A DNA stretch of 4,790 bases, from the IMG/VR virus record IMGVR_UViG_2693429601_000018; one strand, given 5' to 3'. This DNA comes from a virus (taxonomy: Duplodnaviria > Heunggongvirae > Uroviricota > Caudoviricetes). The notes below the pieces were generated by a model that was not told the DNA's origin, did not search any database, and was given only the letters and a program-made list of their open reading frames with translations. This document shows positions 1-4,790 of the stretch, piece after piece. A program made the position numbers and the translations under genes. Position 1 is the first letter of the stretch. Each line of letters starts with the position of its first letter.

Positions 1-1045
1 TAATACTGTAAAAATATCCAGTTGTGAGTTAATCAACGCCGACTGCCTGGAATTTATCCGGTCGTTACCCGAAAATTCTGTTGACCTGATAGTCACGGAC
101 CCGCCGTACTTTAAAGTGAAGCCTGAGGGCTGGGATAACCAGTGGAAGGGCGACGATGATTACCTGAAGTGGCTGGACCAGTGTCTGGCGCAGTTCTGGC
201 GGGTGCTGAAACCTGCCGGAAGTCTTTACCTGTTCTGTGGTCATCGCCTGGCATCTGATATCGAAATCATGATGCGTGAACGCTTCAGTGTGCTGAACCA
301 TATTATCTGGGCGAAGCCGTCCGGACGCTGGAACGGATGCAACAAGGAAAGCCTGCGGGCGTATTTCCCCGCCACAGAGCGCATTCTGTTCGCGGAACAT
401 TATCAGGGGCCGTATCGTCCGAAAGATGCCGGGTATGAGGCGAAGGGCAGGGCACTGAAACAGCATGTGATGGCCCCGCTGATTGCTTACTTTCGTGATG
501 CGCGCGCTGCCCTGGGGATAACGGCAAAACAGATTGCAGATGCCACAGGAAAGAAAAACATGGTGCCGCACTGGTTCAGTGCCAGTCAGTGGCAGCTACC
601 GAACGAAAGCGATTATCTGAAATTACAGTCGCTGTTTGCCCGGGTGGCAGAAGAGAAACATCAGCGCGGGGAACTGGAAAAGCCACACCACCAGCTGGTC
701 AGCACATACAGTGAGCTGAACCGGCAGTATACGGAACTGCTGAGTGAATATAAAAATTTGCGGCGGTATTTCGGTGTGACGGTGCAGGTGCCGTACACCG
801 ATGTGTGGACGTATAAACCGGTGCAGTACTATCCAGGGAAACATCCGTGCGAAAAACCGGCAGAAATGCTGCAGCAGATAATCAGCGCAAGTAGTCGTCC
901 TGGTGATCTGGTTGCGGATTTTTTCATGGGGTCGGGTTCAACGGTAAAAGCGGCGATGGCACTGGGGCGTCGTGCGATTGGTGTTGAGCTGGAGACCGGA
1001 CGTTTTGAGCAGACAGTCAGGGAAGTTCAGGATTTAATCGTTTGA
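1..1045 (+). CDS. DNA N6-adenine methyltransferase, beta-class (motif IV before motif I); 5' end lies upstream of the window
   Basis: The frame of the listed ORF 116..1045 stays open back to nt 2 with no in-frame ATG, so the true start is upstream. Translation from nt 2 gives ...INADCLEFIRSLPENSVDLIVTDPPY (DPPY motif IV, nt ~98-109) and, near the C-terminus, DLVADFFMGSGST (FxGxG AdoMet-binding motif I, nt ~910-950). The order IV...I with ~260 aa between them is the beta-class amino-methyltransferase layout. Stop TGA at 1043-1045. No restriction endonuclease partner is visible in the window. Confidence 0.9.
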   Translation, partial: NTVKISSCELINADCLEFIRSLPENSVDLIVTDPPYFKVKPEGWDNQWKGDDDYLKWLDQCLAQFWRVLKPAGSLYLFCGHRLASDIEIMMRERFSVLNHIIWAKPSGRWNGCNKESLRAYFPATERILFAEHYQGPYRPKDAGYEAKGRALKQHVMAPLIAYFRDARAALGITAKQIADATGKKNMVPHWFSASQWQLPNESDYLKLQSLFARVAEEKHQRGELEKPHHQLVSTYSELNRQYTELLSEYKNLRRYFGVTVQVPYTDVWTYKPVQYYPGKHPCEKPAEMLQQIISASSRPGDLVADFFMGSGSTVKAAMALGRRAIGVELETGRFEQTVREVQDLIV

Positions 1046-1094: not shown

Positions 1095-1170
1095 GGCCCT
1101 TTAGCTCAGTGGTGAGAGCGAGCGACTCATAATCGCCAGGTCGCTGGTTCAAATCCAGCAAGGGCCACCA
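1095..1170 (+). tRNA. ileZ: tRNA with CAU anticodon, Ile2 (lysidine)-type, usually auto-annotated as tRNA-Met
   Basis: Cloverleaf folded by hand: acceptor GGCCCTT/AAGGGCC (7 bp), D-arm GCTC-AGTGGTGA-GAGC, anticodon arm AGCGA-CTCATAA-TCGCC (anticodon CAT at 1128-1130), T-arm GCTGG-TTCAAAT-CCAGC, discriminator A and encoded CCA (1168-1170). Closely resembles E. coli ileX-type tRNA-Ile2 as I recall it; the symbol follows the phage 933W naming from memory. Confidence 0.9.
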
Positions 1171-1179
1171 TATCACATA

Positions 1180-1256
1180 CCGCCATTAGCTCATCGGGAT
1201 AGAGCGTCAGCCTTCGAAGCTGGTTGCGCGGGGTTCGAGTCCTCGATGGCGGTCCA
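1180..1256 (+). tRNA. argN: tRNA-Arg (anticodon UCG)
   Basis: Acceptor CCGCCAT/ATGGCGG (7 perfect bp), D-arm GCTC-ATCGGGATA-GAGC, anticodon arm TCAGC-CTTCGAA-GCTGG (anticodon TCG), variable loop TTGCG, T-arm CGGGG-TTCGAGT-CCTCG, discriminator T and encoded CCA (1254-1256). Symbol assigned only by gene order (ileZ-argN-argO) recalled from Stx-phage literature. Confidence 0.88.
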
Positions 1257-1269
1257 TTATCTGTACCCT

Positions 1270-1346
1270 GCGTTGTTAGCTCAGCCGGACAGAGCAATTG
1301 CCTTCTAAGCAATCGGTCACTGGTTCGAATCCAGTACAACGCGCCA
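1270..1346 (+). tRNA. argO: tRNA-Arg (anticodon UCU, reads AGA/AGG)
   Basis: Acceptor GCGTTGT/ACAACGC, D-arm GCTC-AGCCGGACA-GAGC, anticodon arm ATTGC-CTTCTAA-GCAAT (anticodon TCT), variable loop CGGTC, T-arm ACTGG-TTCGAAT-CCAGT, discriminator G and encoded CCA (1344-1346). Symbol by gene order from memory. Confidence 0.88.
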
Positions 1347-1386: not shown

Positions 1387-1582
1387 AAATGTCTCACAAT
1401 TCAGACGGTTGACAGTTGTCTGTTTTGCGGGGAGTTTGTTAAAAGAAACTGGCATGGTGAATCCCCCTGTGCGGAGGGGCAATCAGCGAGTAGGTATATG
1501 GGATAATCGCGGATTCAGGTGCTGGTACTGAATTCACCGGGAGGCACCCGGCACCATGCAATGGCACATAGCGCCACTCTCC

Positions 1583-1620
1583 AGCCCCTCTCCGGAGGGG
1601 CTGTTTATATTGATTTTGTC
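1583..1620 (+). terminator. GC-rich hairpin with an interrupted U-rich tail; terminator-like or RNA 3'-end structure
   Basis: AGCCCCTC (1583-1590) pairs with GAGGGGCT (1595-1602) as an 8 bp stem around loop TCCG, followed by GTTTATATTGATTTTG. The T-tract is interrupted, so intrinsic termination is uncertain. Confidence 0.35.
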
Positions 1621-1973: not shown

Positions 1974-2233
1974 TTAGTTTCCTTGTTTATGCCTTGCTGG
2001 TGATGTTCTGAAAAGTATAAATGATATTTTTGATTGTAAACCATAGAGCAGAATTATTTTTCTGATGTTGTTTATTGTTTATTTAAATGCAGGGTGGTTT
2101 ATATCTCGTCTTGTAGTTTATCCATGCATATCTGCTTGATGATGAGGTTTTTATTTAAGGTATGGTTTTGTGTTTTTTCTGTATTACATGTCAGGTATTT
2201 TAAAGAATCATTTTTCAGATGGTGGAAAGAACC

Positions 2234-4090
2234 ATGGCATTTAAACACTATGATGTTGTCAGGGCGGCGTCGCCGTCAGATCTTGCGGAAAAGCTGACAC
2301 ATAAACTGAAAGAGGGCTGGCAGCCGTTTGGTAGTCCGGTGGCCATAACCCCTTATACCCTGATGCAGGCGATTACAGCAGAAGGTGATGTGGTCGTCAG
2401 TGGTGCAACTGAGCCGGATTGGTACTACGTCATCGTACTGGCCGGGCAGTCCAATGCCATGGCTTACGGTGAAGGGCTTCCGCTTCCGGATTCTTACGAT
2501 GCGCCCCACCCACGCATTAAGCAACTGGCCCGTCGCAACACAGTGACTCCCGGTGGTAAAGCATGCGCATTTAACGACATCATTCCGGCAGACCACTGCC
2601 TGCATGATGTTCAGGATATGAGCGCACTGAATCATCCGAAGGCAGACCTGAGCAAAGGGCAGTACGGCTGTGTCGGCCAGGGCTTACATATTGCCAAAAA
2701 ACTGCTCCCGTATATCCCGAATAACGCGGGGATCCTGCTGGTACCATGCTGTCGTGGTGGTTCTGCATTCACCCAGGGCGCTGAGGGGACATTCAGTGCG
2801 GACACGGGGGCCAGCCAGGATTCGGCACGCTGGGGTGTGGGTAAACCGTTATATCAGGACCTGATTGCACGCACCAAAGCGGCATTACAGAAGAACCCGA
2901 AAAATGTGTTGCTGGCGGTGTGCTGGATGCAGGGCGAATTTGACATGAGCGCTGCCACCTACGCACAGCAACCGGACCTGTTCACGGCCATGCTGAAGCA
3001 GTTCCGTACTGACCTTTCCGGATTTAACGCGCAGTGCCATGGCGGCAGTGCTGCAGTTGTACCGTGGATTTGTGGCGACACGACGTATTACTGGAAAAAC
3101 ACATACGGCACACAGTATGACTCCGTCTACGGCGCGTACAAAAACAGGGAGAGCGACAACGTTTTCTTTGTGCCGTTCATGACCGACGGTAACGGCAACA
3201 ACACGCCCACCAACTTACCGGCAGAAGACCCGGATATTGCTGATGCAGGTTATTACGGCGCGCAATCCCGTAGTAATGGTAATTGGGTATCGTCAAATCG
3301 TCCGACACATTTCAGTTCATGGGCGCGCAGGGGCATTATTTCGGATCGCCTGGCAACCGCTATTCTGAACGCAGTTGGTCGAACCAGCGCCTTCATCAGC
3401 GGTACCGCACCGGAGATTAAACCCTCGCCCGGCGGCGACACGCCATCGGGGCCGTCTGATGGTGACACATCCGTTCGTACAGTCTCCCTGCTGCCGACAG
3501 CCGGAGAGGCTGCTGCGCAGGGCTGGACCATCACCGGCGGCAGTGTTGCGCTGGAAGATGGTGTGTTTAAGGTTACCAAGCAGAGCAATAAAACCTGGTC
3601 CCTGATGCATCCGGTGGATGACGCAGTCTCCCTGCTGACACGGGGTGGCAGACTGAGCTGTAAGTTTCGACTGTCAGGCGCACTGACCAACAACCAGTTC
3701 GGTCTGGGAATTTATCTGTATACCGATGTAGCGTTACCTGACGTCGTGGCGATGACCGGGACTGGTAACCCGTTCCTGATGTCGTTCTTCACCCAGACCA
3801 CAGACGGCAAACTGAATCTGATGCATCACAAGAAAGCAGGAAACACAAAGTTGGGCGAGTTCGGGAATTACAGTAACGACTGGCAGACGCTGGAGCTGGT
3901 GTTCACCGCCGGCAGTGCCACGGTTACTCCGAAACTGAATGGAGTGGCTGGCCCGGCATTCCAGGTCATAAAAGACAGTCTGACACTGGGGCTGAATGCG
4001 CTGACGCTGACGGATATTACCAAAAATGCAGCGTATGGCGTTGAGATAGAAAGTCTGGTTCTGGAGATAAATGCACCGGCATCATCATAA
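2234..4090 (+). CDS. nanS: Prophage sialate O-acetylesterase, NanS-p type (N-terminal DUF1737-like domain, SGNH/SASA esterase domain, C-terminal beta-rich domain)
   Basis: ORF 2219..4090. The second in-frame ATG at 2234 (MAFKHYDVV...) has the better Shine-Dalgarno (GGTGGAAAG 5-8 nt upstream), whereas ATG 2219 has none; either start is possible. SGNH block I motif VIVLAGQSNAMAYGEG sits at nt ~2438-2470. Established knowledge (from memory): EHEC prophages encode NanS-p 9-O-acetyl-sialic acid esterases with this N-terminus immediately downstream of the stx position. Stop TAA at 4088-4090. Confidence 0.88.
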   Translation: MAFKHYDVVRAASPSDLAEKLTHKLKEGWQPFGSPVAITPYTLMQAITAEGDVVVSGATEPDWYYVIVLAGQSNAMAYGEGLPLPDSYDAPHPRIKQLARRNTVTPGGKACAFNDIIPADHCLHDVQDMSALNHPKADLSKGQYGCVGQGLHIAKKLLPYIPNNAGILLVPCCRGGSAFTQGAEGTFSADTGASQDSARWGVGKPLYQDLIARTKAALQKNPKNVLLAVCWMQGEFDMSAATYAQQPDLFTAMLKQFRTDLSGFNAQCHGGSAAVVPWICGDTTYYWKNTYGTQYDSVYGAYKNRESDNVFFVPFMTDGNGNNTPTNLPAEDPDIADAGYYGAQSRSNGNWVSSNRPTHFSSWARRGIISDRLATAILNAVGRTSAFISGTAPEIKPSPGGDTPSGPSDGDTSVRTVSLLPTAGEAAAQGWTITGGSVALEDGVFKVTKQSNKTWSLMHPVDDAVSLLTRGGRLSCKFRLSGALTNNQFGLGIYLYTDVALPDVVAMTGTGNPFLMSFFTQTTDGKLNLMHHKKAGNTKLGEFGNYSNDWQTLELVFTAGSATVTPKLNGVAGPAFQVIKDSLTLGLNALTLTDITKNAAYGVEIESLVLEINAPASS

Positions 4091-4174
4091 AAAGTGAGCC
4101 AGCCAAATGGAAGGTATCGTTAAACTCACCGGTAGTGTCAGTGGGTCGTCTGAGACGCCTGCATGAGTTATCAG

Positions 4175-4206
4175 AGCCATCAGTACTTAACTGGTGGCTT
4201 TTTTTA
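4175..4206 (+). terminator. Rho-independent terminator between the esterase gene and the holin
   Basis: Stem AGCCATCAG (4175-4183), loop TACTTAA, stem CTGGTGGCT (4191-4199) forming 9 bp with one G-U pair, followed by a T-run (4200-4205). Confidence 0.65.
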
Positions 4207-4240
4207 TTGTTGTCAGCTTCCGGATAACGGGAGACGGGGT

Positions 4241-4456
4241 ATGTACCAGATGGAAAAAATCACAACAGGTGTGTCATACACCACGTCAGCGGTGGGAACG
4301 GGCTACTGGTTCCTGCAGTTGCTGGACAGGGTTTCCCCGTCTCAGTGGGCGGCGATAGGTGTGCTGGGGAGTCTGCTGTTTGGCCTGCTGACGTATCTGA
4401 CTAACCTGTATTTCAAAATCAGAGAGGACCGGCGTAAGGCGGCGCGGGGAGAGTAA
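4241..4456 (+). CDS. S: Class II holin, phage-21 S-type pinholin (71 aa) with dual start (Met1/Met4)
   Basis: [71 protein letters not shown]: two hydrophobic segments and a charged C-terminal tail, closely matching phage 21 S21 as I remember it (...[14 protein letters not shown]...[22 protein letters not shown]). GGGAG sits 7 nt upstream of ATG 4241, with a second ATG at 4250. The listed ORF start at 4163 lies inside the upstream terminator and is rejected. Confidence 0.88.
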
Positions 4457-4460
4457 AGTG

Positions 4461-4790
4461 ATGAATAAAAAATACGAACTGGTTGTTAAAGGGATAAATA
4501 ATTACCCGGATAAGATTACTGTTACTGTGGCACTGGAAATTGGTGGGTATCCGTCACTGTTGTTGCCATATGTGGCGATTAGTCTTGACCGTACTGAAGG
4601 TGCCACGCTGGAGTTTTACGAAGCTGAGGCGAAAAAGCAGGCGAAGCAGTTTTTCATGGATGTTGCTGCCGGGTTATGTGAAGGGGATGGTCCGTTGCCG
4701 GAAAAGCGGCCCATCATTTTAGAGGCGCAGGATGTGTTGATAACCTACAGAGGAAAACTACCGGGAATAATTACTGGTTCTCTGAAGACT
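4461..4790 (+). CDS. Hypothetical protein, 3'-truncated by the window end; lysis-cassette-associated, possibly DUF1327-like
   Basis: ATG at 4461 lies 4 nt after the holin stop, with GGGGAGAG upstream. The frame is open for 110 codons to the window edge (MNKKYELVVKGINNYPDKITVTVALEIGGYPSLLLPYVAISLDRTEGATLEFYEAEAKKQAKQFF...), so it is absent from the supplied ORF track, which lists only the out-of-frame 4540..4722. It has no lysozyme catalytic signature and no N-terminal SAR/transmembrane segment. The DUF1327 guess is from memory only. Confidence 0.6.
   Translation, partial: MNKKYELVVKGINNYPDKITVTVALEIGGYPSLLLPYVAISLDRTEGATLEFYEAEAKKQAKQFFMDVAAGLCEGDGPLPEKRPIILEAQDVLITYRGKLPGIITGSLKT

Follow-up and report, generated by a model that had tools for sequence, protein, structure and literature searches.

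The stretch of DNA analysed here (the window, 4,790 bases) is late-region DNA from a lambdoid prophage of E. coli, of the Stx-phage type. Its features are collected in the table. A standard late lysis cassette begins in the last part of the window, in the order terminator, holin gene S and ydfR. Past the window, the cassette continues with a SAR-type (signal-arrest-release) lysozyme gene R, a small membrane ORF and Rz/Rz1.

Table. Genes and signals of the window, with position, strand and details
Feature	Position	Strand	Details
DNA methylase gene	116-1045		
Three prophage tRNA genes	1095-1343		3' of the methylase gene
STnc100 sRNA family (Rfam)	1423-1612	+	full-length match with 133.6 bits (gathering score 47); directly 3' of the three tRNA genes
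iraM (anti-adapter protein)	1638-1973	minus	between the prophage tRNA genes and the nanS-p-like esterase gene
Sialate-esterase (NanS-p-like) gene	2219-4090		623 aa
Intrinsic-terminator-like hairpin	4173-4209	+	12-pair stem and T run; 3' of the nanS-p-like esterase gene and 5' of the holin gene
Small predicted hairpin, CUUCCG-GAUAA-CGGGAG	4217-4233	+	3' arm is the holin Shine-Dalgarno sequence; predicted about -8.4 kcal/mol
S21-family class II holin (pinholin-type) gene	4241-4456	+	71 codons and stop; ATG 4241, TAA 4454-4456
Shine-Dalgarno sequence of ydfR, GGGGAGAG	4446-4453	+	in the last holin codons; GGAG 4448-4451, 9 nt before ATG 4461
ydfR-family gene (DUF1327)	4461-4790	+	110 of about 114 codons in the window

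At least 80% of the window was found in 969 of 5,426 complete E. coli genomes, with a best identity of 97.6%. Bases 4100-4790 share 95-97% identity with Stx2 phage 86, BP-4795 and many Stx1a, Stx2a and Stx2c phages, and the same values are reached over holin and ydfR with 933W and H-19B. Hundreds of phage and E. coli records carry identical or near-identical genes, so that chance ORFs are of no concern. The late context of the Stx phages (methylase, tRNAs, nanS-p esterase, S) is also the same, the difference being that iraM is found here in the position that carries stx in those phages. From the terminator-like hairpin ahead of the holin gene, and by analogy with lambdoid phage biology, the holin would be reached by antiterminated late transcription.

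In terms of the holin itself, the original prediction of an S21-like protein agrees with the match to the Pfam family PF04971, “Bacteriophage P21 holin S”, which covers residues 5-67 (E 9e-33, 112.5 bits, cutoff 26). PHROG holin families likewise match. Phage 21 S21 is also a PF04971 protein of 71 residues, and the two share the two transmembrane helices of S21-type class II holins and the conserved residues of the second one. The first helix (residues 8-28) is composed of G, A, S or T at 11 of 21 positions. For the second helix (TMD2), S34, Q35, W36, G40, S44, G48 and T51 are invariant in an 18-member alignment, with N55 nearly so, and hydrophobicity peaks at residues 36-54. Pinholins form small heptameric channels that depolarise the membrane, and the window holin, judged by its sequence, is expected to act as one. 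The lysis genes of Stx phages have already been described in two genomic surveys as a pin-holin (P21-family) with a SAR endolysin (PMC8136144, PMC10462455).

The holin reading frame is open back through 4163-4240, and some database entries report a “holin” of 91-97 aa starting at the in-frame ATG 4163. We rejected this start, which has no Shine-Dalgarno (SD) sequence and lies inside or overlaps the terminator hairpin. The longer annotations are probably miscalled starts.

The holin starts with M-Y-Q-M-E-K, in which Met1 is encoded by ATG 4241 (ATG1) and the in-frame Met4 by ATG 4250 (ATG2). The M-x-x-M arrangement is that of phage 21, where S21-68 is the holin and S21-71 the antiholin. According to later papers, the antiholin action of S21-71 comes from its extra basic residue, which hinders the exit of the first helix. 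As the original prediction had pointed out, the Met-Tyr-Gln extension of the window holin adds no positive charge, unlike the Met-Lys-Ser of phage 21. It has no charged side chain, and the computed net charge is +2.51 in the 71-aa and 68-aa forms alike; the positive charge in the extension that marks an S21-type antiholin is therefore absent.

On the sequences compared, the uncharged extension is typical of the holin clade to which the window belongs, with MYQM as its norm. Members of this clade start with MYQM, MDQM, MNQM, MHQM or MFQM, codon 2 being variable (Y, D, N, H). An IMG/VR pattern scan gave at least 120 copies, and among the matches listed 104 are MYQM, 15 MDQM and 1 MNQM. Both ATGs are unchanged among these copies (at least 120), the variation being confined to the first base of codon 2. 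M1 and M4 are also invariant across the 18-member alignment. Most holin classes have a basic residue at position 2 or 3, as in MKSM (K-12 EssQ and relatives), MKFM, MMKM, MYRM, MLRM and MHRM. Uncharged dual-Met starts were found as well in distant members of the family (MITM, MQLM and MTDM). A literature search for treatments of the dual start in Stx-phage holins returned none.

The SD sequence of the holin gene, GGAG at 4230-4233, is separated by 7 nt from ATG1 and by 16 nt from ATG2, which has a weak GGGG 10 nt on its 5' side. As in S21, the SD lies in a sequestering hairpin. MYQM loci keep the stem of this hairpin, with a variable loop, and analogous SD-sequestering stems with covarying inner pairs are found in the MKSM, MYRM and MLRM relatives; such a stem is present in every N-terminus class. 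These leader hairpins were compared by per-sequence folding, and their z-scores are modest in the MYQM group (-0.6 to -1.5). A consensus RNA fold of the holin leaders predicted zero pairs from the MAFFT alignment, in which the stems are out of register. We take the hairpin at the window holin to be the stem-loop that Barenboim et al. described for S21 in 1999, which reportedly sets the start ratio there.

The hairpin over the SD, the spacing of the SD and ATG2 have all been retained, so that both ATGs are probably used, as has been reported for S21. It is possible, if not what we would expect, that only one start is used, most likely Met1, with M-x-x-M as a relic and a single 71-aa holin without an antiholin. 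The 7-nt spacing is optimal for ATG1, ATG2 is preceded only by the distant GGAG and the weak GGGG, and the loss of the charge would lift selection for a second product. However, the same SD spacing is seen in S21-type genes with K or R, both starts are reportedly in use in S21, and Met4 is invariant across the 18 aligned sequences, while codon 2 varies between two unchanged ATGs in the copies scanned.

By the charge rule of S21-71, the 71-aa form would here be an ineffective antiholin, and that of the MDQM variant even less effective. We find it unlikely that this form is still an antiholin without side-chain charge, its longer N-terminus or free amino terminus slowing the exit of the first helix. 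Such a role would agree with a dual-Met start that is kept in the uncharged clade and recurs in MITM, MQLM and MTDM, and with the conservation of the SD hairpin. Against it, published accounts assign the inhibition by S21-71 to the extra basic residue, and the negative charge added in the frequent MDQM variant should favour helix exit.

The next gene begins with ATG 4461, after the 4-nt gap from the holin stop (4457-4460) that had been noted from the sequence, and an in-frame GTG is found at 4458. The suggestion of DUF1327 for this ORF proved right, with a match to PF07041 (E 1.3e-43, 147.5 bits, cutoff 25). In PHROGs it matches phrog_406, and all of its PHROG matches are of “unknown function”. 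There is no lysozyme match in Pfam, PHROGs or PDB. In a Kyte-Doolittle profile (19 residues), no membrane or hydrophobic segment was found, the N-terminus included, the peak being 1.29 as opposed to 1.74 for the N-terminus of the neighbouring lysozyme. With neither a lysozyme domain nor a hydrophobic N-terminus, the ORF was rejected as a SAR endolysin, in agreement with the original prediction. That prediction would have fallen if the full-length gene belonged to a known endolysin family; its 114-codon relative is of the YdfR family. This relative, in the chromosome NZ_CP101257 (97.6% identical), ends 15 bases past the window, which is thus short of the last four ydfR codons and the stop.

The YdfR product is predicted from its sequence to be soluble and mildly acidic (pI 5.45). 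It shares 46% identity with K-12 YdfR over residues 1-74, and the tails of the two are wholly different. The DUF1327 family is mosaic, and its members differ in which version of the N-terminal strands and of the helix they carry. Protein lengths go from 103 to 328 aa, and the long forms carry a second module that exists in some loci as a free-standing gene at the same place. AlphaFold2 places three strands and a helix in the core (residues 1-73, blockwise pLDDT about 73-91). The tail, residues 74-110 (window 4680-4790), reads PEKRPIILEAQxVxITYxGKLPGxITGSLKTPP and is conserved more than any other part of the DUF1327 alignment. This same tail is predicted to be disordered (pLDDT below 50), and may be a partner-binding peptide. 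Fold searches with YdfR gave weak, non-specific matches alone, and no NCBIfam matches were found. A role as a defence system, for YdfR or for the alternative genes at the junction, was rejected on zero PADLOC hits.

K-12 YdfR binds the N-terminal half of RNase E via residues 1-72, as reported in a 2026 study by two-hybrid and co-purification (PMC13232886); these data are on the K-12 allele, which shares no more than 46% identity with the window protein over residues 1-74. RNA copurifies with K-12 YdfR, and according to the authors a contaminant may have been what bound the RNA (PMC13232886). Overproduction was not toxic and changed few transcripts (PMC13232886), and a screen cited in the same study tied ydfR to envelope integrity. 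We infer, with low confidence, that YdfR is a soluble cytoplasmic protein acting late on RNase E and/or RNA, and that it is neither a lysis effector nor a substitute antiholin.

As for the rest of the cassette, prophages 97.6% identical are annotated as holin, YdfR family, lysozyme rrrQ and lysis protein. In the closest relative (locus L002), a 177-aa lysozyme is encoded about 50 bases 3' of ydfR, 400 nt after the holin stop. It matches PF00959, and its relatives of solved structure include R21 and RrrD (3hde, 4zpu). Its N-terminus, MNTKIKYGLSAAVLALIAAGAPAPE, contains K4 and K6 and then an 18-residue stretch rich in Ala and Gly (YGLSAAVLALIAAGAPAP), after which comes the triad E35-x8-D44-x5-T50. 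On these sequence features, the downstream lysozyme has the look expected of a SAR endolysin. The lysozyme is followed by a 45-aa membrane ORF, and then by Rz with an embedded Rz1 that bears a lipobox. In the nearest relatives, then, the endolysin and Rz/Rz1 that were to be sought downstream are found after ydfR, in this order. The ORF between lysozyme and Rz (L002 11547-11684) has a single transmembrane segment and matches phrog_6632, of unknown function.

The GGGGAGAG junction that precedes ydfR in the window also serves the lysozyme gene in cassettes that have no ydfR. The gene thus takes over the ribosome binding site (RBS) in the last holin codons, and should in consequence be made late, together with the holin. 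Since the RBS context of the lysozyme differs with and without ydfR, the gene may alter the amount of lysozyme produced. In cassettes with ydfR, the lysozyme gene has no recognisable Shine-Dalgarno sequence. Ahead of it lies a conserved spacer of about 50 nt (L002 10804-10853, with equivalents in L001, L003, L005, L013 and L020), which contains a small hairpin (CAGGG...CCCTG) and an A/T-rich stretch.

To relate ydfR to the holin N-terminus, we fetched 80 IMG/VR loci and 66 loci from GTDB (one genome per species), and classified 138 holin loci by N-terminal motif and next gene, the latter with an HMM of DUF1327 homologues and the lysozyme sequence. The IMG/VR loci are the best-scoring 80 and contain MYQM holins alone, so that the counts do not represent independent events. 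In this sample, MYQM holins are followed by DUF1327 in 50 cases, directly by the lysozyme in 12 (same 4-nt junction), and by another gene in 12. For the MKSM holins of the genomes, DUF1327 is next in 7 and the lysozyme in 8, with no other gene at this place. The MYRM and MLRM holins of other enterobacteria have the lysozyme directly next in 17, overlapping or abutting the holin stop, and neither DUF1327 nor another gene in any. A few further MKSM, MYRM and MLRM loci have no recognisable downstream lysozyme match. The DUF1327 family comprises 274 clusters, and every source named among the best 120 of them is Escherichia or Shigella. On these sequences, ydfR is an optional, mosaic accessory gene at the S-R junction, restricted to Escherichia and Shigella as far as the best 120 of the 274 clusters are concerned.

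We consider it very doubtful that YdfR is a cytoplasmic regulator of lysis timing, that is, an antiholin with a gene of its own, like P1 LydB or T4 RIII, replacing the charge-based antiholin lost by the MYQM holin. Like LydB and RIII, it is small, soluble and encoded beside the holin gene, in this case directly after it and with the RBS in the last holin codons. Its most conserved segment is the disordered C-terminal tail, as expected of a partner-binding peptide, and the envelope-integrity link reported in the screen cited in PMC13232886 points in the same direction. On the other hand, Pfam and PHROG searches revealed no sequence or profile similarity to LydB or RIII, nor to any annotated antiholin, and overproduction has no growth phenotype. 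DUF1327 also follows charged MKSM holins, K-12 EssQ included, whereas the lysozyme gene comes directly after the MYQM holin in at least 12 loci and a different gene occupies this place in 12 others. The ORF at 4461 thus shows neither similarity to a known antiholin nor co-occurrence with holins that lack an antiholin of their own. Compensation, with ydfR making up for the charged antiholin that the holin has lost, was rejected, as motif and next gene show no association in the 138 loci, the distribution of ydfR being uncoupled from the type of holin N-terminus.

The original prediction of an extra gene intercalated in the lysis cassette stands in that a DUF1327/YdfR gene lies between holin and endolysin, and what it missed is that this is not unusual, being found in the K-12 Qin prophage and in many Stx phages. 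The holin-ydfR-lysozyme arrangement is an already known, common layout. In Qin, the order is essQ, a 4-nt gap, ydfR, rrrQ and rzpQ/rzoQ, thus with the same order and the same gap, a holin that is 79% identical (EssQ) and a DUF1327 protein. The differences are that EssQ starts with the charged MKSM, and that the K-12 YdfR has 103 aa with an unrelated tail and an ATGA overlap with rrrQ, where the closest relative of the window has a YdfR of 114 aa and then the spacer of about 50 nt. Compared with phage 21, the GH24 lysozyme with a SAR-like N-terminus (R21 in that phage) is found further along the cassette and not immediately downstream of the holin, ydfR being in between. Among Stx phages, the YdfR-family protein varies in length from 104 to 328 aa and some phages have none, while Stx2 phage 86 has s, a YdfR-family gene of 268 aa, r, ant, rz/rz1 and bor.

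Taken as a whole, the locus is likely to be an ordinary lysis cassette, with a pinholin, a weak antiholin and an accessory ydfR. The holin would accumulate in the inner membrane, the first helix, which is weakly hydrophobic, would leave the bilayer, and the second helices would assemble into small channels. Depolarisation of the membrane would then release and activate the membrane-tethered SAR lysozyme. With Met-Tyr-Gln as the extension and not Met-Lys-Ser, the 71-aa product would not be held at the membrane by an added positive charge and would be at most a weak antiholin; start-codon use and the role of this product are what we infer for this allele. Lysis timing would be set mainly by the level and allele of the holin, and not by a charge-based holin/antiholin pair. 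YdfR would be made together with the holin, as a cytoplasmic protein that acts late, on RNase E and/or RNA. A role of ydfR in lysis would also agree with its conserved place right behind the holin gene and its tight coupling to it.

Quite unlikely, in our view, is a broader change, in which the Stx-phage clade of S21-type pinholins has dropped the charge-based switch and sets lysis timing otherwise, by a charge-independent effect of the 71-aa form and/or by the variable accessory genes at the junction. YdfR could then act on the late transcript via RNase E or RNA, or else on the holin.

Lysis timing in Stx-type prophages governs phage yield and the release of Shiga toxin, and is for this reason of medical interest. 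The textbook account of pinholin timing, with S21-68 opposed to the Lys-bearing S21-71, has no obvious fit to the commonest holin allele of Stx phages. As for ydfR, few genes of unknown function are as widespread in E. coli prophages. RNase E binding is the first biochemical lead, and its placement as an optional gene, expressed late and together with the holin, gives experimenters the time and place at which to study it. Neither the uncharged extension nor ydfR alters the annotation of the region.

Some further observations were made on the loci compared. The holin-lysozyme junction is modular (L003 1612-2511; L013 3217-3705; L024 968-1609; L012 3134-3610). The C-terminal module of the long DUF1327 proteins, a coiled coil and then ...PSEDEKKRRDEQFAAF..., is also found as a free-standing gene right after the holin. 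In L003, a divergent DUF1327 ORF of 75 aa is placed after the free-standing module gene and not before it.

Lastly, in terms of unusual database entries, two predicted proteins of about 2,200 aa (P0268 and P0272) have holin profile matches in 15-16 separate stretches and look like artefacts. Near-identical E. coli-type holin loci were also found in eight cases (L085, L087, L090, L094, L107, L112, L132 and L145) in assemblies labelled Xanthomonas pisi, Bacillota, Nanosynbacter, Veillonella, Segatella, Geobacteraceae and Alkalicoccobacillus. Such foreign-labelled loci are most likely contamination or mis-binned contigs.
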